A DNA stretch of 59,264 nucleotides from a virus (IMGVR_UViG_3300009481_000013:1-59264), one strand, 5' to 3'. Numbered from the stretch's first letter, positions 1,652 to 22,646 are shown. Made by a program: numbers and translations. The notes: generated by a model not told the origin, from the letters alone.

Positions 1652-1672
1652 AGCCTTAAAGGATAAAACAAG

Positions 1673-3745: not shown

Positions 3746-3759
3746 ATAGAAGAGGCAAA

Positions 3760-4213: not shown

Positions 4214-4238
4214 CATTGTGTTTGTACTGTGTTAATCT
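4210..4238 (+). promoter_or_regulatory. sigma70-type promoter
   Basis: TTGACA-17 nt-TAATCT with TG extension. Confidence 0.65.
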
Positions 4239-4272
4239 CAGTTAGGTAATAATAAACTTTAGGAGATTTTTC

Positions 4273-4602: not shown

Positions 4603-4622
4603 ATTAAGAAAGGAAACATCAA

Positions 4623-6020: not shown

Positions 6021-6574
6021 GTAAAATGATTTTTGACACACTAAAATATGCTTGGACAGACCTTGAAACCACAGGAACCGAAACAGAAGGTGGTGGTATT
6101 TTGGAAGTAGCTTGCATTATCACTGATAGAGCCCTTCAAGAGCTAGGTCGTTTTCACACTCTTGTCCATCCAGGTGATGAAGCGCTAAAAAATATGAGTC
6201 CGTATGTAGCAAATATGCACACTTCGAACAACCTCTTGAGAGACATTCAGGCTCTTGATGTCCCTTCTATTGAAGAAGCAGATGAAAAGTTTGCCGATTT
6301 CCTTAGGCATTACAATCAAGGTGAGCCAAAAGATATCATCCTCGCAGGAAACACCGTTGAGGGAGTAGATTTACCTTTCATTAAGTCTTTTATGCCATTA
6401 TCAAATAAAGAAAAACATTATAGGTATTTTGATATCACTTCTTTAAGGATTGGTGGTGGAATCAAGAATGGGCACGATGTAGATTTCGAAAAATCTCGTG
6501 GTCATCGAGCTTTTGACGATGTGCTTGAGTGTATTGAAGAGTTCAAATTTCTCAGAGCACAAATTCTCAAATAA
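6017..6574 (+). CDS. orn: oligoribonuclease (DEDDh exonuclease)
   Basis: WTDLETTG, ILEVACIITD, MHTSNNL, LAGN, HYRYFD, HRAFDDVLECIEE. Confidence 0.9.
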   Translation: MSKMIFDTLKYAWTDLETTGTETEGGGILEVACIITDRALQELGRFHTLVHPGDEALKNMSPYVANMHTSNNLLRDIQALDVPSIEEADEKFADFLRHYNQGEPKDIILAGNTVEGVDLPFIKSFMPLSNKEKHYRYFDITSLRIGGGIKNGHDVDFEKSRGHRAFDDVLECIEEFKFLRAQILK

Positions 6575-6892
6575 ATGTTTAAAGTTTTATTTTTTAGCTC
6601 TCTATTTTTTACCCTTCAACCAACAGTTTATCAAGCCACTTGGATTACGACTGGTTATGGTTACGGAGCACCAAAGAAAAGTATCATAGTAGTAAAACCG
6701 TGTCAACCAGTAAATCACTACGATAAAGCAAAGTTTAATCGATTTTGTGCAAACGCGGGTAAATACCTTAAACATCAAAAAGGAAGTATGTTCTGCACTC
6801 ACTCAGGTCTACTTACAAAAGAGAAATGTGAAGATGTTGTTCGTCAAAATACGAAAGGAAAACGAACTATTTTAAGACTAATCGAAGATTGA
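6575..6892 (+). CDS. exported hypothetical protein
   Basis: N-terminal signal-like hydrophobic stretch. Confidence 0.5.
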   Translation: MFKVLFFSSLFFTLQPTVYQATWITTGYGYGAPKKSIIVVKPCQPVNHYDKAKFNRFCANAGKYLKHQKGSMFCTHSGLLTKEKCEDVVRQNTKGKRTILRLIED

Positions 6893-7018
6893 AAAGTTTG
6901 GACTGTAAAAGCTTTCTACGCTCTGCTAAGATGATGCAAACAGAGCGACAAACAACATCGCAAAACGCAGGAGCGGACGACTCTGGATTTCCTCAGCGGT
7001 GTTATAGGAAGACTAAGT

Positions 7019-7540
7019 ATGGCAAAGTTTAAAATTGGAGATTGGGTGGAGATTACTCCAAATCCTGATACTTCTTGGAGTGAATGGTCAACTAATCACG
7101 ATAGCTTTTGCGGAGCTATCGGTTACATTGGCGAAATAAGAGATAGCTTCTCTCAATTTGAAGATAACGACAAAATAAAAATCATTGTAGACTTTCGGGA
7201 AGATGTTTTCGGAGGTGGATATAATAGAAATTTTCTATGGTTCCTTAAGCGGCACGTAATCCTTTCAAACAAAACTTCAGAAGAAACAAAACAAAATCTT
7301 AGAAAGAGAGGAAGCGAACTTCAACGATGGGAAGCAACAAAGCGTTCAGTTGTAGACAAAAGTTTAAAAAAAGTCTTTTCGCCTCAGAAGAAGAAAAAAG
7401 TACCCGAAAAAGTAGATATCTGGGATGAAAAAACTGATCCAATGATCTCTATACCTAAGAGGACTAATGATAAAACATTTGATTTATTTGATGATGGTAT
7501 TGATATAGATGACTGGCTTAATGATACTTTTGGTCCCTAA
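7019..7540 (+). CDS. protein with N-terminal SH3-like domain and acidic tail
   Basis: FKIGDWVEI…IGYI; acidic DDWLND C-terminus. Confidence 0.65.
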   Translation: MAKFKIGDWVEITPNPDTSWSEWSTNHDSFCGAIGYIGEIRDSFSQFEDNDKIKIIVDFREDVFGGGYNRNFLWFLKRHVILSNKTSEETKQNLRKRGSELQRWEATKRSVVDKSLKKVFSPQKKKKVPEKVDIWDEKTDPMISIPKRTNDKTFDLFDDGIDIDDWLNDTFGP

Positions 7541-7549
7541 GAGGAAAAT

Positions 7550-7756
7550 ATGCAAGTTAAAGAACTGCGCGAAGCACTTGAAGATTTAAATGATGAAGAC
7601 GAAGTTGTCATTGAGATTCGAAGTTTTACTTGGGGGTGCTACAAGAAGGTTAAAGACCTTCAAAAGAAAACACTTCAACAAAAGGGTGAATTTTTTGAAG
7701 ACGAAACCTATCTTGGAGAGCCTGAATTTCCAGTCAATGTTGCCATCCTCAAATGA
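7550..7756 (+). CDS. hypothetical protein
   Basis: GAGG RBS; MQVKELREAL…DEVVI common small phage protein start. Confidence 0.6.
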   Translation: MQVKELREALEDLNDEDEVVIEIRSFTWGCYKKVKDLQKKTLQQKGEFFEDETYLGEPEFPVNVAILK

Positions 7757-8096
7757 CCTAACCGAGATATTCGAAGAAATTACTATGGAATCAGAACTTA
7801 TGTATTGGAAGAATCACCCTTTGTTTAGAGAAGTATCTTTTGAAATGTCTACAAAAGGCATCGAATCAATCAAATCAGAATCATTTCTAACGAACACCAA
7901 AGAACTACCTTATTTGCCAAAAGAAATACCGTTTAAGTTATTGTATATGCTCGGAACATATTTTGCCGATTCTACAATTAATACTCATCGTAATTTTTGG
8001 GTATATGTGATGATGGAATGCGATACTAAAACTTATGAAAATCTTTTAAAAATGCACTCAAAGGAATTGAGAGAAAAGATTTCACCAGTATGTTGA
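7590..8096 (+). CDS. hypothetical protein (true start probably ~7740-7790)
   Basis: ORF; 5' part overlaps previous gene. Confidence 0.45.
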   Translation: MMKTKLSLRFEVLLGGATRRLKTFKRKHFNKRVNFLKTKPILESLNFQSMLPSSNDLTEIFEEITMESELMYWKNHPLFREVSFEMSTKGIESIKSESFLTNTKELPYLPKEIPFKLLYMLGTYFADSTINTHRNFWVYVMMECDTKTYENLLKMHSKELREKISPVC

Positions 8097-8311
8097 AAGA
8101 ATTAAAAAAAGGATCCCTAGTAAGACATTTAATTATTAAAAATATGAACGGAATAGTGATTTCGCCAAACGGTAGGGCAGAGAAAAGATATTATAAAGTT
8201 TATTGGCTGCTAAACTCCAAATGCGCAGGATTAAATAAAAAAAATAACAAGCGCTGGGAAAGTAGAAACAATTTAGTGGTTTATGAAAAAGAAAACCTTC
8301 AAGAAAGGTGA
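8090..8311 (+). CDS. small SH3/KOW-like protein
   Basis: LKKGSLV…GIVI…YKVYW. Confidence 0.65.
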   Translation: MLKELKKGSLVRHLIIKNMNGIVISPNGRAEKRYYKVYWLLNSKCAGLNKKNNKRWESRNNLVVYEKENLQER

Positions 8312-8498
8312 ACTGGTTTGGCTTTGGTGGAGAACCAAGGATGATGATCCCTTCACCGTATTAGACCAGCCCTACAAAAGATTCGCCATAGTCTTGGTTG
8401 CTAATGAACTTTTACAAGTAGCCGATATTAGCGTTCAAAAATATAAAATCCTAAAAAGAGTTCCTTACACTTATTTAGAACATTCAAACAAAGTCTAA
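8283..8498 (+). CDS. small SH3/KOW-like protein
   Basis: FKKGELV…AIVL. Confidence 0.65.
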   Translation: MKKKTFKKGELVWLWWRTKDDDPFTVLDQPYKRFAIVLVANELLQVADISVQKYKILKRVPYTYLEHSNKV

Positions 8499-8508
8499 AC
8501 ATAGAAGA

Positions 8509-8540
8509 GCCCCGCACTATTTACAGTTGCGGGGTTTTTT
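8509..8540 (+). terminator. intrinsic terminator with CTANTTA motif in its loop
   Basis: GCCCCGCA/TGCGGGGT stem followed by T run. Confidence 0.8.
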
Positions 8541-8993
8541 ATGATACTAGCTTTAAATGAATGGAAGGCTTTTCTTGGAGAAGCTAAAAGAAAAGAATGG
8601 GACTCAGCCCATGTCATCTTGATTAAGGGCAAAAAGGTACTTCTAGTACAGCGCTCTATCGACGATAGCTGGATGCCTGAGAAATGGGCAACTCCAGGTG
8701 GAGAGCTTGATAAAGGTGAGACTCTTGAGCAAGGTCTCAAAAGAGAAATAAAAGAAGAAACTGGTCTTGAAGTAGAACTTGAAGATCTGTTTTATCTTCC
8801 AGCCATTAGTTATAAAATGAAGCACGCTTTCTACGCTTGTAATAAAAGCGCAGGCAAGTTAGAGATTAATGCTAATGGTGTTCACGAACACGAAGCAGCA
8901 AAATGGGTTACCCAAAGTGAAATCACTAATATGGATACTGTTCCAGATATGTTAGAAGTTGTGAAAGAAGCGTTTAAGGTTGTGGGAAAATAA
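8541..8993 (+). CDS. NUDIX hydrolase
   Basis: Nudix box GGELDKGETLEQGLKREIKEETGL. Confidence 0.92.
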   Translation: MILALNEWKAFLGEAKRKEWDSAHVILIKGKKVLLVQRSIDDSWMPEKWATPGGELDKGETLEQGLKREIKEETGLEVELEDLFYLPAISYKMKHAFYACNKSAGKLEINANGVHEHEAAKWVTQSEITNMDTVPDMLEVVKEAFKVVGK

Positions 8994-9618
8994 GATGACA
9001 ATGAAGCTATTATTTGAAAACTGGAGAGGATTTTTGAACGAAGGAATGCAACAGATTGAGAATCTTCCTGAAGGGATTGGTGTACTCATCAATACGGAAA
9101 ATTCTCCTGAAGAAATCCGCATCTCTTATGTAGATTTGCATACTGCCAGTCCTTCTAGTGAGCCGCAAGGAGAAGTGACAATCGGAAATACACCTCAAGA
9201 ATATGCTGATTGGTATGGGGCTTGCTTGAATGCTTGGGTAGTAACTGGAGCAAAGGCTTCAAATGGTTGGGGACCTTTGTTGTACGATGTTGCTATCGAA
9301 TGGGCTTCAATGAGAGGTTCAGGAGTTGGTTTAGCACCCGATCGTTCTTTAGTGAGTGATGAGGCATATGCTGTGTGGGACAAATATGCCCATAGAGGCG
9401 ATGTTGAAGCGATTCAAATGGACAATCCAGAGAATGAATTAACTTCAGACGAGTCAGATAATTGCGCTCAAAACTCATCTGTTGCGGCAGCAAACAATCA
9501 AGGTGTAGAATGGCATCAAACTCCTCTTTCCAAAGTCTATAAGAAGAAAGGGGCTAAAATGATTAAAGCCCTTCAGGCTGCTCAGAAACTAGTTTTCAGA
9601 GAAGAAGGTGATCTGTGA
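8980..9618 (+). CDS. GNAT-like fold protein, probable virion protein
   Basis: GWGPLLYDVAIE resembles acetyl-CoA motif A; paralogous to C-terminal domain of 10109-11413; N-terminal ENWRGFLNE tag. Confidence 0.5.
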   Translation: MWENKMTMKLLFENWRGFLNEGMQQIENLPEGIGVLINTENSPEEIRISYVDLHTASPSSEPQGEVTIGNTPQEYADWYGACLNAWVVTGAKASNGWGPLLYDVAIEWASMRGSGVGLAPDRSLVSDEAYAVWDKYAHRGDVEAIQMDNPENELTSDESDNCAQNSSVAAANNQGVEWHQTPLSKVYKKKGAKMIKALQAAQKLVFREEGDL

Positions 9619-10124
9619 TTGTAATCAAGATTGGAAAAAAGTGTTCTGAGGATATTTTACCTGGCGGCTTAGCAGACAAGAATAGTCCTAGCGATTTTGA
9701 TCCAAAACATTTGGCAAAGAGCACCAAAGTAGAAATGGAGCACGTTAACGATAAAAAAATTGCTCAAGAGATTGCGATGGATCACTTAACAGAAGATCCA
9801 AAATATTATGACAAATTGAAAAAAATAGAAACTGAATCTTTAGCAGATTCAAGAGTGAAGATTTATAGAGCCTTGCCTGCAACTACAACTGAAATACGAC
9901 ACGATGATTATGTTACATTGTCTCGTAAATTTGCAGGCGACCACGCAGTAACTTCAGCTGTTTATAATGAAGAGCCTTTTTATGTGGTTTGGGCTTTCGT
10001 AGCTAAAACAGATATTGTAGAAGCATCAAATCCTGGTGAATACAAATATATGGGAAAACCCTTTAAGGCTAAAGCGAGCCAAATAGCAAACGAAAATGGA
10101 GTCCTTAAGTGGTTAAAAATATGA
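9615..10124 (+). CDS. DUF5661-like domain fused to putative ADP-ribosyltransferase-like domain
   Basis: KVEMEH…EIAMDHLTEDPKYY; then IYRA…YVTLSR…GEY (R-S/T-E-like). Confidence 0.5.
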   Translation: MIVIKIGKKCSEDILPGGLADKNSPSDFDPKHLAKSTKVEMEHVNDKKIAQEIAMDHLTEDPKYYDKLKKIETESLADSRVKIYRALPATTTEIRHDDYVTLSRKFAGDHAVTSAVYNEEPFYVVWAFVAKTDIVEASNPGEYKYMGKPFKAKASQIANENGVLKWLKI

Positions 10125-11413
10125 ATTCACTTGTTGAAAACTGGAAGGCATATCTTGAAGAATTGGTAGACCCAAGTTCTATTGATTTGTCTAGCTTTGC
10201 AATCAAAGATCAATTGAACCCTCAAGTATGGGTTGGTGGTCGTTTGCGTCCAGAAGTAAAAGAGCGCCTTATAGAGATTGCTAACGACTTCTTTGAAGCT
10301 CTAGAACTTCCTGATGTAGAGTTGAAGGATATCACCTTTACAGGTTCCTTGGCGAACTTCACGTGGTCCCAATTTTCTGATATCGACCTTCACTTGATTG
10401 TTGATTTTAACGAAGTTGACACAAACGTGGAATTGGTTAAGAATTGGCTTGATCAAGCTCGCGCAGTTTGGAACAAAAGTCACGATATTGAAATCGGGGG
10501 ACACGAGGTAGAGATTTACGTACAAAACGAAACAGAACCTCACATTTCAACAGGTGTTTATTCGGTATTGAATGATGCTTGGTTGACAAAACCTGATAAA
10601 GAAAAACCTACAGTCAAATGGGATGAGGTTCAGGAAAAGGCTGCATCCTTGATGAACGAGATTGAAGAGGTTGAAAAGATGTTTTCGTCAGGTGAAACGG
10701 AAGCAGCTTTAGAATACGCAGAAAGACTTAAAGAGAAGATTCGCAAGTTTAGAAAGAGTGGACTGGAAAAAGGAGGCGAGTTTTCTGTTGAGAATATCGC
10801 GTTTAAAACCCTTCGCAGAAACGGATACCTTGAAAAACTGTCTAAACTGAAGGATGATGCATATGATCAAAATATGTCTCTTCAAGAGTCGCGTAAATGG
10901 CAAAGCTTTATGAATGAAGCAGCTGTTACGCCAGAACAGATTCCTCAAGGTTGGAAGTTCACAATTAAAGAACAACCGAATCGAGTGGTTGTTGTTTTGA
11001 AAGACCATAGAGACAAAGGAGTAGGTAAAGTTCTTATTCAAAATGATACCAGACTACCTTGCATTGATGCTCTCTCTGTTCTCTCCTCTTACGCACCGAA
11101 AGGATATGGTCCTTTGCTTTATGATTTAGCAATGGAACTTTCTGGAGATAGGGGCATTTATTCAGATCGCACCAGTGTAAGTGACCAAGCTCAAAAGATT
11201 TGGGAATATTATGAGCATCATAGGAGTGACGTAGAATCGTTTCATCCTCTTGAATTGATCGATACAACGGAATCAGAATGTGTGGAAGATATCACTTTTA
11301 TGTTTGGAGAAGAATGGGAAGATGATCCACTTTCTAAAGTTTATAAAAAGAAAACTGACAAACTAGCTACTCTTGAAGCTCTCAGAACGGCAAACAAGAT
11401 AACATTTGTCTAG
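10109..11413 (+). CDS. Pol-beta family nucleotidyltransferase fused to GNAT-like domain
   Basis: TGSLANF…SDIDLH…EVEIY; C-terminal GYGPLLYDLAME…SDRTSVS. Confidence 0.8.
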   Translation: MVKNMNSLVENWKAYLEELVDPSSIDLSSFAIKDQLNPQVWVGGRLRPEVKERLIEIANDFFEALELPDVELKDITFTGSLANFTWSQFSDIDLHLIVDFNEVDTNVELVKNWLDQARAVWNKSHDIEIGGHEVEIYVQNETEPHISTGVYSVLNDAWLTKPDKEKPTVKWDEVQEKAASLMNEIEEVEKMFSSGETEAALEYAERLKEKIRKFRKSGLEKGGEFSVENIAFKTLRRNGYLEKLSKLKDDAYDQNMSLQESRKWQSFMNEAAVTPEQIPQGWKFTIKEQPNRVVVVLKDHRDKGVGKVLIQNDTRLPCIDALSVLSSYAPKGYGPLLYDLAMELSGDRGIYSDRTSVSDQAQKIWEYYEHHRSDVESFHPLELIDTTESECVEDITFMFGEEWEDDPLSKVYKKKTDKLATLEALRTANKITFV

Positions 11414-11416
11414 TTA

Positions 11417-13939
11417 TTGGAGCGAGGAAACACAATGAATCAATTATGGGAACAAAAATGGCGTTCGTTTAGAAAAACTGAACCCCAATCAGCACCGGAG
11501 TACAACAAACCAAAATCTATTGATGAGGGCGGTCCGCTTCTTAGAGAACTTACAGAATTTGAATATGATAAGGTTGCTCACGTTGTTGGAAATGTAGACG
11601 CTGATGACTTATCGTTTGACAACATTTTTCAAGGTAAAAAAAGAATTGTTATCCCTTTTGTAGCTGGTCCAACTGGAGAGTTAAATAAGATAATCACATA
11701 TTTTGATAAAGCCGGTTACGAAATCGATTGGAACAATGGTCTAGTCGGAAAAGAGATAGAAACTCAGCGCGGGAAACAAATGCGCAAATCAAAGATTGGG
11801 AAATTTTTAAATAAAGCTATCTCTGTTCAAAAAAAGTTTGAAGCTTTGGCACTGACTCATAGCACTGCTGTTGGAAATGCACAAGCTCTTAGGAAAGAGG
11901 AAACAGAAGAAATAAAACAAAATCTTATTCGTCAAGGCGAAGGGGGGGGAAGTTATCGCATTAACCAAGAGGCTCGGAATATTTGGTTTGATAATGATAG
12001 AACTCCCGAATATAAAGTTATTCAAAAAACAATAGATGATTTTGAACTTAAAATGGATCAACTGCGCCGCAAAATTAATGATGAATTTGGTTCTTTTGTT
12101 TCTGCAAGAGAACTTGAAGCTATGCTTAAGTTTTGGAACGAAAAAGGAGACTTTTATCGCCAGAATCCTCAAGCAATTCAAGGCGAGGAAGGCAAATATT
12201 CACTTGTAATTACTCGTGCGCCGATTGATGTTCTTCGAATGAGCGATTTTGACGACATTACTTCGTGTCACAGCCCTCCCAACCGTGGCTCGCCGAATGG
12301 CGGGGGTTATTATGCTTGTGCAATAGCTGAAGCTAATGGTCACGGTCCTATTGTATATGTTGTAGAGAATGTTGACATTCCAGAAGATTTTGATTGGGAA
12401 GAAGACGAAGTATTTACAGACGATCATCGCGGAGTGAATGGGGTAGAGCCTATTTCTAGACTTAGAGTTAGAAAATTCGTAGACCCAGATAAAGAAATAA
12501 GTTTTGCTATTCCAGAGCTTAGAACTTATGGTAGAAAATTTCCTAATCTTGGAAATGCGGTTAATAATTTCTTTAGAAAATCTCAACCAGAAATAATGGC
12601 TAATCCTCCTTCTGACAAATTGTATAAATTGGAACGATATGGCGGCTCATATTCGGACAATACAGATGATAATCTTTTTAGAAGATTTTTCGACAATTCT
12701 ATTGCATATACTGGTAGTGCAAATCATCTAAATGACGATGAAGAAGAAGAATATGATGATGAGGAAGAGGCAGATTTAGAAGCTGAATATGAAGCAGAAT
12801 GCGAAGGAATTGATGCTCAATACAACAATCATCATACTCTTGAACACGCTTACGCAAGCTATGAAATTGAAGATTATGGTGACGGCGTAGCCGTCTTTAT
12901 GAACGGCGGAATGTCTATTGAGATTGATGAAGATGAAATGATCAATACTTTGCCCGATTGGAGAGGTCAGAACGAACTTTCAAAGCAGATTCAGGGTGAG
13001 TTAGATGTGTCTGTGAATGATATAAATTTTCAAGAATTTAACGGCTCACTTCACGTTCAACTAGATGCTTATACGAGCAACATCTATGAAAATACTCCAT
13101 CAGCTTATGAAGATTTTCTGAGATATAACGTTAAAGAATTAGATGATGGATATACTCAAATTTTAGCAACTGTTCGAAAAGTTTTAGTTGCGAATAAGAT
13201 TTTAGCACAAAACGCATTTGGAAGCCTCACGCTTGATGCCGAGGCACTTGATGATATTGGAGATAAATATAAACACTTTGACATAGAATATCACGATGGT
13301 GAACTTACTATCGATCTTAAAGAAGAATCAAAAATTCCTATTGACGTATCGCTTATTGTTGAGTTAAACAAAGAACTGGAGGGAACCCCTCAAAATGATG
13401 ATGCAAAATACAACGATTCTGTTCTCAGAGCAGGTCGACACAGTTTAAAACATTTTATTAAAACTCTCGAAGCAGACGGCTTTAAACATCAAGTGTGGTC
13501 AGGTATTGTCAGAATGATTGAGAATGCAGCTAAACAGATTGATCTTCCAGGTTTAGAAAATGACGTAAATAACGAAGTTAGCATTAAAATGCCTTTTGAA
13601 GATTTGAGTTTTTCGCCAGCAGGCAGGGGAATTACCCAAAATAATATTACAAAACCTTGGATTGCTTATACTGATCTGACAATGACTCTTACAGGTCTTG
13701 AAGAAAACGAAGATGTCATCATTGCAGTGAAGCTTATCGAATATATTGACGAACATTTTGAACGTGTTGCGGAATTCGTTAATAAAGAATTCAACAATTT
13801 TGCTAAAAGCGTAAACGATGCGATAAATAATGTGACCAGTTTATTTGAAAAAGAAAATATGGTAAATGAAGTGTTAAAAAGTATTCAGCCAAAAACGAAG
13901 AAAATAGTTATTGGTTTGCAAAGAAAAAAAACTAGTTAA
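11417..13939 (+). CDS. large hypothetical protein (probable virion protein; likely start 11435)
   Basis: 840-aa ORF, EQKWRSF tag, acidic linker; GAGG RBS before ATG 11435. Confidence 0.75.
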   Translation: MERGNTMNQLWEQKWRSFRKTEPQSAPEYNKPKSIDEGGPLLRELTEFEYDKVAHVVGNVDADDLSFDNIFQGKKRIVIPFVAGPTGELNKIITYFDKAGYEIDWNNGLVGKEIETQRGKQMRKSKIGKFLNKAISVQKKFEALALTHSTAVGNAQALRKEETEEIKQNLIRQGEGGGSYRINQEARNIWFDNDRTPEYKVIQKTIDDFELKMDQLRRKINDEFGSFVSARELEAMLKFWNEKGDFYRQNPQAIQGEEGKYSLVITRAPIDVLRMSDFDDITSCHSPPNRGSPNGGGYYACAIAEANGHGPIVYVVENVDIPEDFDWEEDEVFTDDHRGVNGVEPISRLRVRKFVDPDKEISFAIPELRTYGRKFPNLGNAVNNFFRKSQPEIMANPPSDKLYKLERYGGSYSDNTDDNLFRRFFDNSIAYTGSANHLNDDEEEEYDDEEEADLEAEYEAECEGIDAQYNNHHTLEHAYASYEIEDYGDGVAVFMNGGMSIEIDEDEMINTLPDWRGQNELSKQIQGELDVSVNDINFQEFNGSLHVQLDAYTSNIYENTPSAYEDFLRYNVKELDDGYTQILATVRKVLVANKILAQNAFGSLTLDAEALDDIGDKYKHFDIEYHDGELTIDLKEESKIPIDVSLIVELNKELEGTPQNDDAKYNDSVLRAGRHSLKHFIKTLEADGFKHQVWSGIVRMIENAAKQIDLPGLENDVNNEVSIKMPFEDLSFSPAGRGITQNNITKPWIAYTDLTMTLTGLEENEDVIIAVKLIEYIDEHFERVAEFVNKEFNNFAKSVNDAINNVTSLFEKENMVNEVLKSIQPKTKKIVIGLQRKKTS

Positions 13940-13943
13940 AGAT

Positions 13944-14516
13944 ATGAAGATGTTAAAAGCTATATTTAGTGGTATTCTGTTGTTGGGGATGATTTCTTGT
14001 TCAAATTTGTCGGATGTCTCGACTTGTGGTCTAGATTATGAACCAATTCCCGGTTATAGTAATGCAGGTCAAAAGGTGATTGGAGATTACTTCGACGCAG
14101 AAAGAACTTCTATAGCTATGGATATTTTTTATGACAAGTGGGTTGAAAAATCAGAAGATTACGACGAAGTAGCATCAATTTTGTCAGGTGTTTGTGTTAA
14201 GTGGGAGCCTTATCCTTGGATTGTAGAAAGTTTAGGAAATTATGAAGATGGGGTACCTAAGCGTGCTGCTGGCTTAACTGAATCTAGACGATTAGTTAGA
14301 GTGTTTATCGGAGAAAATGAAGATAGTTTGGGAAATGAAATAGAAAGAACAATTTCGGCAACTGCCTTGTGGCACGAATTAGTTCATTTAACGCTTTGGA
14401 ACTTGAATGATGAACCAGACCCAGATCACGAAGGTTCTTCTTATAGTGGTTGGGAAACGGACGAAACTCAGGTAATCATCGATTCTAGAATAGAAGGAAA
14501 CCATTTGGGAATTTAA
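13944..14516 (+). CDS. lipoprotein Zn metallopeptidase-like
   Basis: signal peptide ending MISC; HELVH…DPDH. Confidence 0.6.
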   Translation: MKMLKAIFSGILLLGMISCSNLSDVSTCGLDYEPIPGYSNAGQKVIGDYFDAERTSIAMDIFYDKWVEKSEDYDEVASILSGVCVKWEPYPWIVESLGNYEDGVPKRAAGLTESRRLVRVFIGENEDSLGNEIERTISATALWHELVHLTLWNLNDEPDPDHEGSSYSGWETDETQVIIDSRIEGNHLGI

Positions 14517-14520
14517 AAAA

Positions 14521-15102
14521 ATGTATGAAAAGAAACGTATAAATGAAACTAAAAACTTTCTCAAAGGATGGGGAACTTATCTCAACGAAGCAGGCGGTCT
14601 CGATGGAGTCAACCGTTCTAAAATTGCTCAACTTCTTAAGCGCCTAGGTAAAAGCGAACAACCTCCTCCGATTCCAGATGATGCTATGCCTGCTGATGGC
14701 GCGGATGATGACAATGTTGTAGATGATGTTGATGTAATAGATTCAGGAAACGATCTTTCTATGGGACAAATAATGGTCGTTTTAAATCAGTTGCGCAATA
14801 CAGGCGGTCTATCATTTGAGGATTTGGGAAATGATCTGCTTAATCAAGTGAGAGATTCTATTAAAAAAACTATTACAACTTTAGCTAAAAGACCAGGTGT
14901 TCGTTCAAGTGACATAGCTCAAGATAAACAAAACATCGAAGAGGTTGGCGGCAGAATCTTAAAACGCCTTGAAGTGGCATTTGAAAAACTCTTTCAACCA
15001 AGGGCGCTTGTGAATCTTCAAGAAGTCCTTCAGGTTATTGAAAGCGAGGAACATAAAGTTCTTAAAGAGCACAAAAAACTTATTATAAGGATTAAAGACT
15101 GA
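14521..15102 (+). CDS. hypothetical (probable virion) protein
   Basis: KGWGTYLNEA tag. Confidence 0.65.
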   Translation: MYEKKRINETKNFLKGWGTYLNEAGGLDGVNRSKIAQLLKRLGKSEQPPPIPDDAMPADGADDDNVVDDVDVIDSGNDLSMGQIMVVLNQLRNTGGLSFEDLGNDLLNQVRDSIKKTITTLAKRPGVRSSDIAQDKQNIEEVGGRILKRLEVAFEKLFQPRALVNLQEVLQVIESEEHKVLKEHKKLIIRIKD

Positions 15103-15103
15103 C

Positions 15104-15553
15104 ATGAGTGATGACGTGCTTAAAGATTTGTCTGATCAGTTTTACCCCTATGCTCAACAGAAAATGGGGTTTGACAAGCCAGTTCAAATAAATTACTTGA
15201 ATGATCCACAAAATGCTGAAGATCCTCTTGGAAAAACTGCATACTACGATCCAGAAGCTATGGAAATCTCACTTTTTGTTGATGGAAGGCACCCAAAAGA
15301 CATCCTTCGTTCTTTATCTCACGAGTTAGTTCATCATACACAAAATTGTCGCGGCGAGTTTGCAAACGGCTTTATAGCAACAGAAGGGTATGCGCAAGAA
15401 GATGAACATCTCCGCGAAATGGAACGCGAAGCATACGAACAGGGCAATCTTGTTTTCAGAGACTTTGAAGATGAGTTTAAAGCTAATAAAAAAAAGAAAA
15501 GTTTAAAGTTAGAAATTAAAATTAACAGAGGAAAGAAATTATGTCTAAGTTAG
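15104..15553 (+). CDS. zincin-like metallopeptidase
   Basis: LRSLSHELVHHTQ…EREAY. Confidence 0.75.
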   Translation: MSDDVLKDLSDQFYPYAQQKMGFDKPVQINYLNDPQNAEDPLGKTAYYDPEAMEISLFVDGRHPKDILRSLSHELVHHTQNCRGEFANGFIATEGYAQEDEHLREMEREAYEQGNLVFRDFEDEFKANKKKKSLKLEIKINRGKKLCLS

Positions 15554-15683
15554 AAGATCATTTTGATATTCGCAGAATCAAGCTTAATAAACAATTGATG
15601 GATAAATATGGCTATAAGCCAAAAAAAGATACCAACAAGGAAGTTCTTAAGAACGAACCCAAAACAAACAAGGAGAAAAAATA

Positions 15684-15953
15684 ATGACATCACCAAAACA
15701 ACGCAAAAAGCGACGACTTTTGAGAGCGTTACAAGAACTACAAACAGCCGCACCTGAAGTGGTTGAAGTCGCGCCAGAGGAGCCAAAGAAAGCTTTACCA
15801 GAAGTAAAGAAAGAAGTTCCAAAAGTAGCAGCTAAGAAGGCTCCTAAGAAGCCAGCTGCTAAACCTGCAAAGGTGTCAGCGAAACCTGCCAAGAAGGCAG
15901 ACAAGCCAGCTGAGGATTCTGTAGAGGCATCTACCAAAGCTACCAAGGAGTAG
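15684..15953 (+). CDS. Lys/Ala/Pro-rich (histone H1-like) protein
   Basis: AAKKAPKKPAAKPAK low-complexity; AGGAG RBS. Confidence 0.6.
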   Translation: MTSPKQRKKRRLLRALQELQTAAPEVVEVAPEEPKKALPEVKKEVPKVAAKKAPKKPAAKPAKVSAKPAKKADKPAEDSVEASTKATKE

Positions 15954-15959
15954 AAGATT

Positions 15960-16241
15960 GTGCCCGACTTCAGAAAAATGACCAAAAAGTTTCTTTTAGG
16001 AGAAACTAAAAGTAAAGAGCCAGGAATGATGAGTCATCTTCAAGCTCTTGAAGAGACGCTCGGCTTATTGCAGCCTCGCTCTAAATCCGATTCCCGTCGC
16101 GTTGAGATTGCGCGGGAACATTTGCGTGGAATGAAGCGTCAATATCGTCGCATTATACAAGAGAATAAAAAGTTGCAAGAAAAGGTTAGCCTTTTAGAGG
16201 AAGAAAAAGCAAATGCACTCATTGAAGAAGATTATAAATGA
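15960..16241 (+). CDS. coiled-coil hypothetical protein
   Basis: ORF with heptad pattern. Confidence 0.6.
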   Translation: MPDFRKMTKKFLLGETKSKEPGMMSHLQALEETLGLLQPRSKSDSRRVEIAREHLRGMKRQYRRIIQENKKLQEKVSLLEEEKANALIEEDYK

Positions 16242-19200
16242 GGGCGGCGCCGCTGCCGTTGCTCTAACAAATAAAAAACTAGCTCCACATCCAAACAATG
16301 CTGAAAGAGATTTGCAATATGGCAAAATCTCGGATGCTGAGCTGGATTCTATTTTTCCTAGAGAATATGGAACTATGACAGATGCTTCTGACGATACATA
16401 CGTTGGAAGGATTTTTCACGCTCTTGGTTCGCAAGGATTGATAGACACTTCTCATTCTCCCTCATATTCGATGGGCTCCACACGTCTGGCAGCACTCAAA
16501 AAATATGGTCGTGGTTCTATCGGGCTAGACAAGTATGAAACTGATGACGTAATCGCAACCGTAAGCGGAAAAAAGACTGAATATGGTGATTTAGATATTG
16601 ATCTTCTTTTTACTGGCGACAAAAAGTCTATTGCCAACGCAATTGAAGCTATTGACCCGTCTGTTTATGCAGCAGCAGCTGGAGGTCCCAAAGCTGTTGC
16701 TGTAGCTATTCGAATTGGAAACAAAGTTATCCAAGTAGACTTGGTTGATATCTCTGAAGGTCAAGCGGCACAGGACTTTCTTTGGAAGAGCAGTTTTGTA
16801 GACTTGGCAGCTGGAGTTAAAGGTGCTTTTTCTATTATTTTGCTGCGAGCAGTAGCTTCTGTTATGGAAATTGGTCCTAGTGATACCCTTGAGTCTCTTA
16901 TTCAATATGCTCAAGACAATCCAGAGTCTCGATTTGCCAAAGATTTCAATAAAAAGCTAAAACTAAATTATCAACCAGTTGGTTCGCGCTTTTCTCTTGG
17001 TTCAAAAGGTTTAAAGCTTATTGTAGATTTAGAAAAGCCAAGTAAAAAAGATCCTAACAAAAAAACTCAATCAAAAATCGATTTTGAAGATGCAGTGCGT
17101 CAAGGATACGAAGATTTAGATGAATTGGCGCAAATAATTCTTCAAAATCGAAATGCTGACTCATCTACGATTTATAGTGCAACGAAACTAGCTAGTTTTA
17201 TCAAAAAACACGTCCCTCAAAGCAAAATCAATCTGATTTGGAGCGCTTTTCTAAAAAGTACTAAAGATACGCTTGAAGGAAAAATCGATCAACACGATTA
17301 TGAGACTGGAATGGCTTTTTTGGGCAATTTACTCGGAACTGAGTGGACTCCTGAAGCAGCTGCAACCTTAAATGAAGCTCGTGAAGATATTGGGCGATTT
17401 ATTGGTAAAAATAAGTTCTCCAATAAGAATATGCTGTTGCTATTGAGGGCTTTGGTTTCCGAATCGGGCAACGAAGGAAAGACCAGTTTTGATATTAAGC
17501 TTTCAGAAAATCCAGCGGTTGATATGGTTGAGAAAATGGATTCATCGTTCAGTCACTTTGGTATCGACCCAGAAGGCAAGTTCTTTATGGAAACCAGCAA
17601 TAGCGGTCCTGTAACGAAAGAGAACTTGGAAGAAAAGTTCGGAACTAAGCCAGAGTTTTTCCACGATATCTATGAATCCTTCAAATGGTTGTCCAACAGT
17701 AAAGAGGTTCAAGGTTCTCTTCAAGAAATTTTCAAACAAATCGGACCAATTAGATATGATGCTGAACTCTTTCCAGTTTTGACTCACGAAGGTGATGCTT
17801 CAGGGAATATTGTATTCGTTGGCACACCTTATTCGAGAGAGAAGCTTGGAAGAGTTGGTGGTTTCGTAGTATTTAAAGCTCAAAAATGGAGTCCTGAAGA
17901 GCTTAGTTGGTATCGACCAGAACCAGCAGAGAACGTAGCTTTGGTGAAGATGATTAAACAGTCTTCTTTCTCAGGCAACTGGGCTGGAGATTGGAGAGTT
18001 TATACCAACGAAGAAGATATGAAACACAACGTCACGCTTCACGTTGAGTTTGATGAGTTGTTGTCAAGCTATTTGAGCAGTGAAGAGAGCTTCAATAAAG
18101 CTCTGGCACTTGTCTCTACACGTAAAAACAATCCCGATAAGGATGAACTGCTCTTTTCTCTAAACAGAATACGTGAGGTGTTGCAAGATAAGCTTAATTC
18201 TTATGCTTCTGGAGCTGAATCTATTCTAGGTGGTGAAGGCTCTTACATCGAAGGCGTTGTCCTCCGAGTAAAGAAGAACAATGGTGATATTTTCGAAGCA
18301 AAAGGGACTTCATACAAGTTTGATGAGCACAAGGAAGAACTTTGGGAGGATCGCGTCAATGTACTTAATCTTACCAAGACTTTTGAAAAGAAACTAATGA
18401 TTGAGGTTCTAGAACTTAGAACTGATCATCCAGCAACATTGAACAAAGCAATCAAGCAAGTGTCCCTTGAGTTTAACGCTACCTCAAGCGGCGATGAAGC
18501 GAAGGTGGAGTTTATTAGAGAGCTGTTACCTGTTATCACCGACAAGACAACTGGGTTTGATAAAATAAAACCTGAAACAATCAACCTAATCAATGAAACA
18601 GAAGCTCTTTACAAAGAACTCCTTCAGCAGTTTGAAGCGAACAAGCCAAATCTCGATCCTGACACTATCAGGAAAACCCAAGCTTTGTATGACTCTTCTG
18701 CTGAGTCTCTAAGTAAGTACAAAGCAGCTGCCAGCTCTACTCTTGAGAGTATGTCTTATTTCGTATACCTTATTGGTTTAACACTGAACAGAAGAATCGA
18801 CAGATTTGTGAATTTTGGAAGAACTAAGCCACGCCCAGAGAAGAAAGATGTTCCTAAAGTTATCTTTTGGAATGGCAGGGCTCAACCTTGGCACAAAGGT
18901 CACGATGCTATGGTGCAGAAAGGCAAAAGTATGCTCAATACACTTGATGCTGAAGCGGTAATGATTATGATTGTCAAAGGTGGTAAAGCTTCTCAAGACA
19001 AATCGGTAAATCCATTGTCAGAGTCAGATCAAATCAACTTGATTAGTGCAATCTACGAAAATGATCCGCAAGTTATCGTTTCAGACAAGATTTTGAAGCG
19101 TTCATTCATTGGAGAGATTGCAAATGTTGTCTACAGCACTGGATATGAGGTTGTAGGTTGGCTTGCTGGTGCAGATAGGATCGATAGCTACAGAAAAGGA

Positions 19201-20364
19201 TTGAATTCTTTTAATCCCGAAATGTGGGAAAAAGATCACGCTTATTCGCCATTTGACGCCGACGATGCTGGACACTCCACAGTTAAGATGATCGAGACTC
19301 CTCGCGTCATGAGCGGAACCAAGGCGCGTGAGCTAGTGAATCAGGTAGAGGTTCCTGAATGGATTGATGCTGTAGCTCCAGATGGTATTGGGGAAGCTGC
19401 TCAACAAGCTTATGTCGAAGTTTATGACAAACTTCGAAACCCTGAGCTTTCTGAAATAGTGTTTGATGCTCTTGAAGAGATGTCATCAGCTGGTGGTGGT
19501 GCTGTTAGTGGTTATCCTGGTGGTTTCAAAGACCCAGACGCAGATGAGGGCACTCTAATCAGAGAAGAGGAAACAGATGGTGACGAACTACTTAATACAG
19601 AGGTAAATGAAATGGATCGTGAAGTATTTATGAAAGAAATGCAACTTAGGAAGTTTATTCGTCGTGCAATCAATATTGTCGAGAGTAAGAATCAAAAACA
19701 GCGCTTTTTGCAAGAATCTAAAGTGCGAAAGTACGTACGAAAGCTTATTCTTGAAGCAGAAGAAGATCATCCTCACGATTCTACCGGTATCAATGTTCTG
19801 GAAGACCTTTTGAAGAAAATCATCCCAGTATTTGAGAAAGATTACAAATCGCTCACTACGGATGCAAACCAACGTAAATCTTTCCGTTCTCACGTTATCA
19901 ATGCAGTGCAAAATTCTCTTGCTCCTTCACGAGCTGAGATTAGTATTAATCCAGAAGCTCCACAAGGACCTGCTGTAGGGATGACTGAACAGGAAGATGA
20001 ACTTGAGATGGATATTCCTACTGAAAGGGATCTTGATCCTAAATTTATCGATATTGATCCAGCATCTAAAGAAGCTCCAGAAATTGCTCCAGAAGAGAAG
20101 TTTGGCATTCCTGGTGAAGACGAAACAGGACGTAATGTCGCTATGAGAAGTTGGGATCAAGTAGAAACTTCAGTTATTGATGCCTATAATGTTTTGTCAA
20201 ATGCACAGGATCGGGAAATGTTTTATGATTATCTTATTACAAATCTAAAACTATATTTCGATAAAATGGAAGAAGAACTTTCTCCAGGTGTTCAGGAACC
20301 TGAGTCAGAAATCTATCAGCAACAAAAAACAGCAGAACAACCTTCTTCTGATTTTAATCTTTAA
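16213..20364 (+). CDS. multidomain protein: Pol-beta NTase + RNA-ligase-like + HxGH cytidylyl/adenylyltransferase + acidic C-terminal domain
   Basis: MGS…YGDLDIDL…QVDL; VEKMDS…DAELF…IEGVVLR…EAKG; GRAQPWHKGH…GADR…SGTKAR. Confidence 0.75.
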   Translation: MHSLKKIINEGGAAAVALTNKKLAPHPNNAERDLQYGKISDAELDSIFPREYGTMTDASDDTYVGRIFHALGSQGLIDTSHSPSYSMGSTRLAALKKYGRGSIGLDKYETDDVIATVSGKKTEYGDLDIDLLFTGDKKSIANAIEAIDPSVYAAAAGGPKAVAVAIRIGNKVIQVDLVDISEGQAAQDFLWKSSFVDLAAGVKGAFSIILLRAVASVMEIGPSDTLESLIQYAQDNPESRFAKDFNKKLKLNYQPVGSRFSLGSKGLKLIVDLEKPSKKDPNKKTQSKIDFEDAVRQGYEDLDELAQIILQNRNADSSTIYSATKLASFIKKHVPQSKINLIWSAFLKSTKDTLEGKIDQHDYETGMAFLGNLLGTEWTPEAAATLNEAREDIGRFIGKNKFSNKNMLLLLRALVSESGNEGKTSFDIKLSENPAVDMVEKMDSSFSHFGIDPEGKFFMETSNSGPVTKENLEEKFGTKPEFFHDIYESFKWLSNSKEVQGSLQEIFKQIGPIRYDAELFPVLTHEGDASGNIVFVGTPYSREKLGRVGGFVVFKAQKWSPEELSWYRPEPAENVALVKMIKQSSFSGNWAGDWRVYTNEEDMKHNVTLHVEFDELLSSYLSSEESFNKALALVSTRKNNPDKDELLFSLNRIREVLQDKLNSYASGAESILGGEGSYIEGVVLRVKKNNGDIFEAKGTSYKFDEHKEELWEDRVNVLNLTKTFEKKLMIEVLELRTDHPATLNKAIKQVSLEFNATSSGDEAKVEFIRELLPVITDKTTGFDKIKPETINLINETEALYKELLQQFEANKPNLDPDTIRKTQALYDSSAESLSKYKAAASSTLESMSYFVYLIGLTLNRRIDRFVNFGRTKPRPEKKDVPKVIFWNGRAQPWHKGHDAMVQKGKSMLNTLDAEAVMIMIVKGGKASQDKSVNPLSESDQINLISAIYENDPQVIVSDKILKRSFIGEIANVVYSTGYEVVGWLAGADRIDSYRKGLNSFNPEMWEKDHAYSPFDADDAGHSTVKMIETPRVMSGTKARELVNQVEVPEWIDAVAPDGIGEAAQQAYVEVYDKLRNPELSEIVFDALEEMSSAGGGAVSGYPGGFKDPDADEGTLIREEETDGDELLNTEVNEMDREVFMKEMQLRKFIRRAINIVESKNQKQRFLQESKVRKYVRKLILEAEEDHPHDSTGINVLEDLLKKIIPVFEKDYKSLTTDANQRKSFRSHVINAVQNSLAPSRAEISINPEAPQGPAVGMTEQEDELEMDIPTERDLDPKFIDIDPASKEAPEIAPEEKFGIPGEDETGRNVAMRSWDQVETSVIDAYNVLSNAQDREMFYDYLITNLKLYFDKMEEELSPGVQEPESEIYQQQKTAEQPSSDFNL

Positions 20365-20401: not shown

Positions 20402-20513
20402 TATGACTTGATCATTAGACAAGAGAACACTTGATCTATTTTTTCTTATTTGATCTATAATATTACTGATCAATTGGTATAGTGTTCTATACGTTCAAAT
20501 CCAAGGAGAAATA

Positions 20514-21005
20514 ATGACTATTAGAGATGATTATGAAGAAATCGGAGCAAGCATTGGAAGGCTCATTCAAGAAAAACAAGCAGCGTACGGAGATTCATTT
20601 AACCGGTCTAACGAAATTCTACGGGTTCTATATCCTGAAGGTGTTACACCAGATAAGTATCGTGATTTCCTAGCTGTAACGAGAGTTATTGATAAGCTAT
20701 TCAGGATCGCTACAGACAGAGACGCACTTGGAGAAAGTCCGTGGCGTGATGTTATGGGCTATGCGCTTTTGAGTCTTGCTCACCAAGAAGAAGAGAGAGT
20801 GATTTCATTTACACCCGATGAAATAAAAAAGGCTGTAATAAGTGAATATGAAGAAGTTTATGGCGTAGAAACTCCTCCTAAGATTGCCCCTGCCCCTCGC
20901 GGCGGTCGGCAACAGAAAGGTTGGGCTCAACAACAAACAGCCACCGCTGGTCAGACCACTACAGTAGTTAATACAGAAGTGCCTGCCGATCATAAGAAAC
21001 GTTAA
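20514..21005 (+). CDS. nucleotide-modification-associated (DUF1599/MazG-like) domain protein
   Basis: KQAAYGDSF…DKLFRI…ESPWRDVMGYALL; AAGGAG RBS. Confidence 0.6.
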   Translation: MTIRDDYEEIGASIGRLIQEKQAAYGDSFNRSNEILRVLYPEGVTPDKYRDFLAVTRVIDKLFRIATDRDALGESPWRDVMGYALLSLAHQEEERVISFTPDEIKKAVISEYEEVYGVETPPKIAPAPRGGRQQKGWAQQQTATAGQTTTVVNTEVPADHKKR

Positions 21006-21007
21006 TA

Positions 21008-21379
21008 GTGGTTTGGACTCCAAAGAAAAAAAAGTTTGGCAAGAACAGATATTATTCAGTAGCCAAGTTGTTGCGAAGGCAAAGAAAAACTTCTCCACAG
21101 TTTGAAGTAATGCTCAGCAGCCTTTCTCTTGAAGAAGTGATTGCCCTGAAACTTGAGTTGGCAGCTCAGGCTTCAGGGTCTCCTCTTTACGGTGTTCCTC
21201 TTTGGAAGAATTTAAATTTTATCGTTAGAGATGCTGTTATTAAATATGCTCTTTCAGCTACTCGTACTAAACACGAAGCAGCTCGTTTTTTGGGAATGGA
21301 TATAAGTCAGTTTTGGTTAAGGCAGAAATATTATCAAACAGAAAGTTATTTTAACAAAGAAAAAGAAGATGATCTGTAG
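21008..21379 (+). CDS. Fis-like HTH DNA-binding protein
   Basis: AVIKYALSATRTKHEAARFLGM resembles Fis HTH. Confidence 0.6.
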   Translation: MVWTPKKKKFGKNRYYSVAKLLRRQRKTSPQFEVMLSSLSLEEVIALKLELAAQASGSPLYGVPLWKNLNFIVRDAVIKYALSATRTKHEAARFLGMDISQFWLRQKYYQTESYFNKEKEDDL

Positions 21380-21443
21380 AACTTTTTTTTCTTTGTCCGT
21401 TTAAAGAGATAGAAAGCTAGTTAGCTTCACAAGAGATAGAACA

Positions 21444-21545
21444 ATGAGTAAAATACAAGGGATTTCTGGTTTTAGTATGTCACAGGTCACAAGATCGGTG
21501 GGTACAGCTGCGCGCAACGATATCGAAGAAAAAAATAGCCCTTGA
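21444..21545 (+). CDS. putative attenuator leader peptide (33 aa)
   Basis: MSKIQGISGFSMSQVTRSVGTAARNDIEEKNSP*, stop inside antiterminator strand. Confidence 0.5.
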   Translation: MSKIQGISGFSMSQVTRSVGTAARNDIEEKNSP

Positions 21546-21597
21546 TTTGAACGTTTAACAACCGAAAGAATCAAGGGACTCGAAAGAGTCCTTTTTT
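21539..21597 (+). terminator. overlapping antiterminator/terminator (attenuator)
   Basis: CCCTTGATT/AATCAAGGG competes with AGGGACTC-GAAA-GAGTCCTT-TTTT. Confidence 0.75.
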
Positions 21598-21629
21598 ATT
21601 AGATACTTAGGAGAAACACAACAATAGGC

Positions 21630-21658
21630 TTGACAAATAGCGCGCCGCCTGCTACAAT
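21630..21658 (+). promoter_or_regulatory. sigma70-type promoter
   Basis: TTGACA-17-TACAAT with TG extension. Confidence 0.8.
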
Positions 21659-21831
21659 GCGTTGGACTTAGGAGAAAGAGATGAAATTACAACCTATTTT
21701 TGGTAAAATGCAAAGAGATGGTAAAAATAAGAATGGATTGATGATGTTTAAATGCTTAGAGTGTGGACGTAGGTCTTCTTGGGCAAGGCAAGAACATAAT
21801 CACCCAGAGGTTGAAGAAAAGTAAGAAATAT

Positions 21832-21909
21832 GCGCCCAAAGTGTCAAGAGGCTCTGTATACCTGTTTTGTACTCAGGAGGACCGAGTTCGAGACTTGGTG
21901 GGTGCTCCA
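21832..21909 (+). tRNA. tRNA-Thr(UGU)
   Basis: cloverleaf, GCGCCCA/TGGGTGC, TTCGA T-loop, CCA. Confidence 0.8.
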
Positions 21910-21961
21910 AGAAGATGTGGAATAAGGTGATAACCACAGTTAAATAAAAACGACCTACTAT

Positions 21962-22259
21962 GGGGGATCCATGGTTTCGACAGAGTAAGGAGAATGATTC
22001 ATACAAGGAAGCCAGCCAACAAATGCTTTAAATCAGTGTTGGAAAGTATAACTGCAAACGATAATGTTGAACAGTTCGCTCCTATTGCTCTAGCAGCGTA
22101 GAAAGCTGGGCGTCAACTGCCTGGGAACAGAAAGTTGAAAAGAGAAGAATGAATGGTAGAATGGAATGTCAGTTGCTGGACTCAAACCAGCTAACCTTGT
22201 AAGTATTTGAATTATTTGAGTTATTTTGGACAGCGGTTCGACTCCGCTATCCTCCACCA
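21962..22259 (+). ncRNA. ssrA: tmRNA; tag ANDNVEQFAPIALAA* (22054-22101)
   Basis: GGGGGAT/ATCCTCC acceptor with G3:U70, TTCGAC, GGAC-AGCGGTTCGACTCCGCT T-arm, ACCA; internal tag ORF ending ALAA. Confidence 0.95.
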
Positions 22260-22312
22260 GAGTGAAAGCCAGCAAGAACTAGGCTTGACGCATCGGAGAG
22301 ACGATGATTTAT

Positions 22313-22570: not shown

Positions 22571-22646
22571 GGCTTAGAGATCGAAGAGTCGAAATATCTG
22601 CCTGTCGAGCAGAATCAAACAGGTTCGAGTCCTGTCTAGGTCGCCA
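22571..22646 (+). tRNA. tRNA-Asp(GUC)
   Basis: CTGC-CTGTCGA-GCAG anticodon arm, T-arm, GCCA; weak D arm. Confidence 0.8.

Follow-up and report, generated by a model that had tools for sequence, protein, structure and literature searches.

A candidate ribosome-dependent transcription attenuator at the end of a protein-coding block, ahead of the tmRNA/tRNA island of an uncultured phage

The locus considered here raises the question of whether a short open reading frame, a helix at its stop codon and the intrinsic terminator behind it act together as a ribosome-dependent switch, and of what such a switch could control. It lies in an uncultured phage fragment with a CheckV completeness estimate of 33%, hereafter the window, by which we mean the whole 59-kb stretch of DNA that was analysed (59,264 nt). 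All long ORFs of the window are carried by the + strand, and its gene matches include a helicase, a dCMP deaminase, a PhoH-like protein, NUDIX, HNH endonucleases and glycosyltransferases, together with one tmRNA and 26 tRNA genes called by ARAGORN. A 123-aa gene, the product of which matches Pfam HTH_8 at an E of 0.0026 (under the curated cut-off), closes a long protein-coding block as its last long gene, and a tmRNA gene, in one piece according to ARAGORN, opens the tmRNA/tRNA island as its first RNA gene. No cultured relatives emerged when the phage collection was searched with 20500-22300 (blastn) and with the 123-aa protein (tblastn); the PhoH-like protein of the window had only matches below 40% identity there. 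Three DNA runs displayed no variants in the leader region, and Rfam returned no known RNA family in 21380-21660 except a histone stem-loop match at chance level (E 0.29). The elements discussed below are the following.

21008..21379, + strand: upstream gene, 123 aa, weak Fis-type HTH match
21399..21423, + strand: spacer with the conserved elements CCGTTTA, then TAnTTA (alignment A2, four leader-bearing sequences)
21444..21545, + strand: leader ORF of 33 codons, start ATG, stop TGA at 21543-21545, peptide MSKIQGISGFSMSQVTRSVGTAARNDIEEKNSP
21539..21548, + strand: arm A, candidate antiterminator 5' arm, containing the stop codon
21568..21577, + strand: arm B', candidate antiterminator 3' arm, the last 4-5 nt of which (AAGGG, 21573-21577) also start the terminator 5' arm
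21573..21597, + strand: intrinsic terminator AAGGGACTC-GAAA-GAGTCCTTT plus T-run, hairpin at 21573-21594
21630..21658, + strand: sigma70 promoter with extended -10, GCTTGACA-N14-TGCTACAAT (TTGACA-17-TACAAT with TG, 11/12 matches)
21681..21824, + strand: 47-aa ORF, first gene past the promoter, good SD (-7.3 kcal/mol)
21962..22259, + strand: tmRNA gene with the tag ANDNVEQFAPIALAA (ARAGORN; Rfam RF00023, 99.4 bits)

The intrinsic terminator, with its T-run to 21597, which an earlier note on this DNA had proposed from the sequence, is indeed present, with nine pairs (four of them G-C), a loop of four (GAAA) and a T6. The exact terminator (CAAGGGACTCGAAAGAGTCCTTTTTT) was also found, without arm A, in 14 contigs of an unrelated small-phage family (L024-L038 except L027, e.g., L024:2268-2293), where it ends a small basic gene of about 47 aa or 40-odd aa (MAKSVSWNSEQ...). 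In 11 distinct small-phage contexts, the region preceding the terminator reached only -5.7 to -12.6 kcal/mol and placed no long helix onto the arm, which indicates that the hairpin works by itself as an ordinary terminator, arm A being an extra found specifically in the leader clade. Chance is an unlikely source of 22 identical bases in unrelated phages (we estimate <0.01 for such a collection), and this identity, at the sequence level, suggests that the common terminator is host-adapted or was exchanged between phages.

Beyond the terminator, the pattern TTGACA-N13-16-TGnTAnAAT was found three times in the window, against 0.03 expected, at 21630, 22485 and 26100 (all +). All three consensus extended -10 promoters of the window fall within the tmRNA/tRNA island; to judge from these sites, host-type promoters seem to drive the RNA genes there, in contrast to the protein-coding blocks. 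Within positions 1-20000, sigma70-like sites were fewer than in shuffles (37 vs 53.3) and terminator-like sites showed no excess (13 vs 12.0). From this distribution of promoters and terminators, the terminator at 21573-21597 lies where the long protein-coding block meets an RNA-gene island equipped with its own host-type promoters.

Relatives of this region were found via the 123-aa gene, with 22 in viral contigs and, in metagenome contigs, the best 80 of 300. The 450 nt downstream of its homologue were scanned in 90 distinct regions, the window included, for a terminator, for at least four bases of its 5' arm paired upstream at -12 kcal/mol or better, and for an ATG ORF of 20-60 codons, the stop of which had to fall at the paired block. 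A terminator-like site was present in 15/90 downstream regions and the full combination of ORF, helix and terminator in 4/90, the other 11 terminator-bearing regions being without such a helix plus ORF. The four leader-bearing sequences are the window, L001/L040, L039 and L041; L040 is the same contig as L001 and L027, and L042 is a near-identical copy of L041 ending inside the terminator. L001, L039 and L041 are the closest among the relatives listed (84, 80 and 70% identity in the neighbouring protein). The four sequences form one narrow clade, so that their conservation partly reflects shared descent. All three keep the intrinsic terminator downstream of the leader ORF. The arms, peptides and computed energies compare as follows, all energies in this work being nearest-neighbour predictions.

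Window: arm A / B' CCCTTGATT / AATCAAGGG, stop inside arm A; leader peptide MSKIQGISGFSMSQVTRSVGTAARNDIEEKNSP, 33 codons; A:B state -14.4 and terminator state -15.3 kcal/mol; refolding barrier from antiterminator to terminator 2.2 kcal/mol
L001: arm A / B' CCCTTGAATTTT / AAAATTCAAGGG, arm A beginning 4 nt past the stop's first base, 5/9 terminator 5'-arm bases; leader peptide MNKMQGFSGFSSTQVVGSVEGMSAIIDATGLET, 33 codons; A:B state -17.6 and terminator state -18.6 kcal/mol; barrier 1.9 kcal/mol
L039: arm A / B' AGCCCTTGA / TCAAGGGCT, stop overlapping arm A, 7/8 terminator 5'-arm bases; leader peptide MNKMQGFSGQSMQVVGSAEGTTAFIDSQTDT, 31 codons; A:B state -15.0 and terminator state -15.1 kcal/mol; barrier 5.9 kcal/mol
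L041: arm A / B' GAGTCCCT / AGGGACTC, stop overlapping arm A, 8/8 terminator 5'-arm bases; leader peptide MNNTGTTFAMSQQSESTVVATFSGIDATKQT, 31 codons; A:B state -17.3 and terminator state -18.2 kcal/mol; barrier 9.1 kcal/mol

The comparison with related phages, which had been put forward as a check on the proposed pairing, came out in its favour within this one narrow clade, the pairing being kept with changed arm sequences in L001, L039 and L041. In all four sequences, no more than about 4 nt separate the stop codon from the arm A 5' end. The core CCCT/AGGG is common to the four by descent, and in three sequences (window, L001, L039) the helix grows from it on the 3' side of arm A, in L041 on the 5' side. 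Such differing extension suggests that selection acts to keep the first bases of the terminator within a helix, whatever its exact sequence. The L041 arm A directly repeats the terminator 3' arm, which puts the whole 5' arm (8 bases) under competition; a repeat of this kind is a classic attenuator signature.

Whether the ORF at the 5' side of this helix is translated was considered from its conservation. The 33-codon ORF with its stop at 21543-21545 inside CCCTTGATT, as previously described, was read directly at 21444-21545. The leader ATG is aligned and the frame open in 4/4 sequences, the chance of an open frame being 0.10-0.22 per sequence as estimated by shuffling, and the other two frames across the leader are interrupted by stops in most cases. 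Leader peptides are 26-48% identical, vs 70-84% for the neighbouring protein, and the pN/pS of the leader ORF is 0.45-0.9; its length remains steady at 31-33 codons (in L039 an upstream in-frame ATG would make the ORF 45 codons) and its stop remains steady at arm A. A fast-changing peptide in a frame kept open is what would be seen if the act of translation counted for more than the peptide it yields, and the sequences fit such a leader. SD-like pairing before the leader amounts to -5.7 to -6.3 kcal/mol in L001, L039 and L041, for a gene median of -5.6; it is weak before the window leader (-2.9 kcal/mol, near the random-ATG median of -2.4).

Part of the peptide is nevertheless recognisable from one phage to the next. 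The C-terminal halves have diverged with indels, and the N-terminal 19 residues (M-x-K-x-Q-G-x-S-G-F-S-x-x-Q-V-x-x-S-V) can be followed in three of the four sequences and in P0004, the one more 33-aa relative returned by a profile search of 1.84 billion proteins. This moderate conservation of the N-terminal half leaves room for a peptide function of its own. Two long proteins from the same search, P0002 and P0003, matched through short repeated stretches; a peptide-pattern scan confirmed no further leader copies, and a degenerate DNA pattern of the leader N-terminus recovered only the L001 contig, while the pattern for P0004 recovered nothing. As had been claimed, the leader has no run of one amino acid. 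No conserved rare codon was found among its codons either, the ATA and AGA of the window being replaced in L001, so that only general ribosome progress could be read.

Two other readings of the same stretch were tried and rejected. A -1 frameshift on the A-run at 21530-21536 would meet a stop immediately in the -1 frame, and the run is missing, by eye, in the three relatives. A minus-strand gene (57-aa TTG ORF, 21401-21574) finds no conserved match in the relatives, whose minus strands are open for at most 19-53 aa, in differing frames.

In the spacer that separates the leader from the 123-aa gene, all four sequences keep CCGTTTA and TAnTTA unchanged, and these elements do not match a sigma70 promoter; the combined pattern GTTTA-N12-14-TAnTTA has one copy in the window (0.54 expected). 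The motif CTAGTTA, to which the earlier note had drawn attention, does lie at 21417-21423, as stated there, at the TAnTTA element of the spacer, and as a recurring motif it is not borne out, its six copies in the window being at chance frequency (6.05 expected). No promoter was found directly upstream of the leader ORF. The sole consensus match considered as a promoter for the leader, at 21426-21454 (10/12), would start transcription inside the ORF and, by eye, is lost in L001.

In the window itself, the perfect 9-bp pairing that had been noticed, overlapping the terminator 5' arm, can be read directly: CCCTTGATT (21539-21547) is exactly complementary to AATCAAGGG (21569-21577). The minimum-energy fold takes this helix one register over (21540-21548 with 21568-21576) and places it beside a shortened, 5-bp terminator hairpin (GACUC-GAAA-GAGUC). 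This coexistence of the A:B helix with the shortened hairpin means that the two structures are only partly exclusive in the window, where arm A pairs with 7/9 terminator 5'-arm bases (AAGGG plus two bases beyond a bulge). The 71-nt stretch at 21530-21600 folds at -17.7 kcal/mol, vs a shuffle mean of -9.16 (sd 2.34, z -3.65), and 0/200 shuffles were as good; the 221-nt stretch at 21380-21600, taken as a whole, has no unusual structure (z -0.53). In the equilibrium ensemble of the full window transcript with arm A free, the five loop-proximal terminator pairs are at 0.68-0.97 and the sixth at 0.37, and A:B holds the three outer terminator positions, the pairs of which use U-run bases. Such outer U-run bases are still in the RNA-DNA hybrid when a hairpin acts.

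Across the four sequences, the computed antiterminator and terminator states are near-isoenergetic. When a terminating ribosome was imitated by a mask reaching 12 nt beyond the stop codon's first base, an assumed footprint, the full terminator remained in 4/4. The observed helix onto the terminator arm was reproduced in 0/1000 dinucleotide shuffles of the upstream region (42 nt in the window) for each sequence. The refolding barriers are less uniform. In the window and in L001, 4-5 nt are contested, the hairpins can coexist and the barrier comes to about 2 kcal/mol. The equilibrium in L039 and L041 lies entirely with the terminator, so that any antitermination there must be kinetic; when a long L039 transcript is folded, the partner of arm B is a far-upstream segment instead of arm A. 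With an order-of-magnitude prefactor, exchange between the two states would be sub-millisecond in the window and would take roughly one second in L041. From the stop to the last base of the T-run there are 53-71 nt, which, for usual footprint sizes, would be compatible with a coupled ribosome at the stop and a polymerase at the terminator.

Taken together, these sequence features lead us to give about an even chance to a leader-peptide attenuator of transcription, dependent on the ribosome, that closes the protein-coding block just ahead of the island promoter. Polymerase arriving from upstream would transcribe the 33-codon ORF, and arm A, around the stop codon, could then pair with the segment opening the terminator 5' arm (arm B). 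If a ribosome stood at the stop when the terminator 3' arm emerged, arm A would be buried, the full terminator would form and transcription would end. If no ribosome were there, because the leader was untranslated or because of a stall more than about 5 codons earlier, the A:B helix would form first and withhold part of the terminator stem, with more read-through into the 47-aa gene, the tmRNA and the tRNAs as a consequence. Translation of the ORF, the deciding role of ribosome position in the fold and the change in read-through are the steps that we infer. The attenuator of the earlier note is partly supported: comparison favours its architecture, which is kept in 4/90 regions with changed paired sequences, and the support is weaker for the window copy, where competition involves only 4-5 nt against a barrier of 2.2 kcal/mol and where the regulatory range is probably small. 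The folding model predicts a weak switch in the window and a strong switch in L041.

An ordinary small gene followed by an ordinary terminator would be a simpler account, and we hold it to be possible, if somewhat doubtful. The first hairpin would then be an accessory 3' structure stacked on the terminator, aiding termination or protecting the transcript end, and ribosome position would be irrelevant. The minimum-energy fold of the window, which holds both hairpins side by side, is in line with this account, as is the barrier of about 2 kcal/mol in the window and L001, although it fits these two sequences and not the others: the hairpins cannot coexist in L041 or L039, where 8/8 and 7/8 5'-arm bases are taken, respectively. 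The same terminator does stand alone in another phage family, two transcription units are usually insulated by a terminator placed directly ahead of a strong promoter, and a structure starting at a stop codon is unsurprising in compact phage genomes. Against this, arm A repeats the terminator 3' arm in L041, the near-equal energies of the two states in 4/4 sequences would not be expected of an accessory hairpin, and a helix plus ORF of this kind is absent both from the 11 other terminator-bearing relatives and from the 11 small-phage contexts, which serve as natural controls.

The locus may also matter through a product of its own, either a micro-protein of 31-33 aa or the terminated short transcript acting as a trans-acting small RNA, with the hairpins serving the expression or stability of that product. 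We consider this quite unlikely as the main explanation, and it is compatible with an attenuator. The recognisable N-terminal 19 residues in three of the four sequences and in P0004 speak for it, as do the gene callers of two sources, which predicted such peptides; peTrpL and rnTrpL reportedly illustrate that attenuator products can act in trans (PMC7298713, PMC6614838). The low identity and the pN/pS of the leader speak against it, and so do a hydrophilic, low-complexity peptide without Pfam or PHROG match and with an unconserved C-terminal half; the pairing of arm A with the terminator arm would moreover be left unexplained. That pairing, like the position of the stop codon, is equally unaccounted for if the first hairpin serves as a signal for RNA processing or stability (e.g., a double-strand-specific RNase site) parting the upstream mRNA from the tmRNA/tRNA precursors, which appears to us very improbable. 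The downstream RNAs do need processing and the helix is conserved, but at 9-13 bp it is short for RNase III, which requires a helix of roughly 20 bp, and no nuclease-site-specific feature was found at the hairpin.

Returning to the ribosome-dependent attenuator, what it could control is limited by the promoter behind it. The separate sigma70 promoter, which had been entered as a caveat to the original proposal, is present at 21630-21658 with 11/12 matches, and the extended -10 promoter after the terminator is kept in the window, L001, L039 and L041. The claim that the leader gates the tmRNA/tRNA island is weakened by this consensus promoter, conserved in all four. With a strong promoter after the terminator, the island has its own drive and needs no read-through, and only transcripts coming from upstream could be added or withheld by the attenuator. 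As a speculation, and an unlikely one in our view, the leader would be a codon-unspecific sensor of ribosome progress, faltering translation letting upstream transcripts run into the tmRNA and tRNA genes. If true, this would constitute a feedback loop raising ribosome-rescue and decoding RNAs when they are needed, e.g., after host tRNA cleavage, and phages could in this way couple their supply of such RNAs to the translation state of the infected cell. It would then bear on phage tRNA sets countering host tRNA-targeting defences (PMC11555353). If the element does not work as a switch, it offers a useful caution, since contact between a helix and a terminator does not by itself make a switch. 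The four natural variants, with barriers of about 2 to 9 kcal/mol, constitute a ready series for testing how much antiterminator overlap is needed.

Several observations concern the island side of the junction. The conserved 47-aa ORF at 21681-21824 has a CxxC pair (MKLQPIFGKMQRDGKNKNGLMMFKCLECG...), with a zinc-knuckle Pfam match at chance level (E 0.017), and comparable ORFs follow the promoter in L039 and L041, by eye, as after the 21630 promoter. A tRNA-like sequence at 21831-21907 (+), ending in CCA, aligns with a tRNA-Thr(UGU) that ARAGORN called just before the tmRNA in L001; it received no call by ARAGORN or by Rfam at E up to 1, and by its sequence it is possibly a divergent or decayed tRNA-Thr gene. 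Rfam also reports a tRNA at 22571-22643 (+; 39.5 bits) that is missing from the ARAGORN list.

Other relatives carry a different RNA in this slot. A pseudoknotted RNA of about 75-155 nt was found 50-130 nt after the 123-aa gene homologue in 44/100 sources, when the window and 99 loci were searched with the model R1; all 44 hits are on the + strand (e.g., L094:1940-2036, L006:3446-3570 and L050:921-1003, plus 41 further loci). It comprises a hairpin P1 with the loop yAUGyCUCUAAC, a CUCU/AGAG pseudoknot, the core AAAGAGAGRCUAGUA and a hairpin P2 with the loop ..CGAGAAAU. In alignment A4, pairing covers 96.7% of cells, 0/500 shuffles attained the covariation score, and slid controls did not exceed 55%. 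Eight loci, six of them with the motif, were searched against Rfam at E up to 0.1 and matched no family. The motif lies 15-33 nt before the tmRNA 5' end in 17 of the 44 hits and 280 nt before it in four; 20 hits are without a tmRNA downstream and three are cut off. In some loci (L006, L094), what looks by eye like a covarying outer helix comes next, together with a T-run. R1 gave no hit in the four leader-bearing sequences, window included, even with filters off. The possibility that the window spacer is a relic of this motif (TTAAAGAGA...GCTAGT, by eye) was rejected, as the covariance model found nothing there, its best match in the four sequences having an E of 1.7 and being located outside the spacer. 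On the speculative sensor reading, a slot that holds a leader in four sequences and a pseudoknotted RNA in 44 sources would suggest that the junction before the tmRNA gene is regulated and served by two devices.

Leader-peptide attenuators are classic elements of bacterial biosynthetic and resistance operons. In the trpL type, a short ORF precedes an intrinsic terminator, an alternative helix uses part of that terminator, and a ribosome at the stop favours termination. Regulatory codons define the amino-acid class, not all ribosome-mediated attenuators. The trpL, pheL and hisL leaders of E. coli share with the present locus a short ORF, a terminator and an alternative helix; the pheL leader is treated in PMC3082878. 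The phage leader differs from this type in having no regulatory codon run and no fourth segment, so that an untranslated leader should give read-through, not super-attenuation; it ends an operon instead of following a promoter, an independent promoter comes after it, and it precedes RNA genes, not biosynthetic ones.

Leaders of the vmlR, msrD/mef-mel and bmrCD type, which sense translation inhibitors, share this logic too. Reportedly, their ORFs are without amino-acid runs, and when the ribosome stalls or is missing the RNA changes from the terminator to the antiterminator fold (PMC9226507, PMC4335068, 10.1101/2021.11.29.470318), so that, as proposed for the phage, trouble in translation turns on genes that help translation. 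They are reported to respond to drug-specific arrest at defined codons, whereas no arrest motif is known in the phage leader, the downstream genes of which are, unlike theirs, a tmRNA and tRNAs with their own promoter, in a phage. No paper describing a leader-peptide attenuator ahead of a phage tmRNA/tRNA island or cluster was found in the literature searched. A phage case is the marine phage Melnitz, where the tmRNA gene reportedly follows an early promoter between terminators and a glutamine (glnA-type) riboswitch was proposed (PMC9004378). Both phages thus have a tmRNA gene under proposed RNA-level control, a two-piece tmRNA and a riboswitch in Melnitz as described there, and in the window a one-piece tmRNA and a translated-leader candidate without riboswitch family match. 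With a plain intrinsic terminator, finally, the locus shares a G+C-rich hairpin, a GAAA loop and a T-run, and it departs from one in that the terminator 5' arm has a potential pairing partner upstream, where a conserved ORF has its stop.
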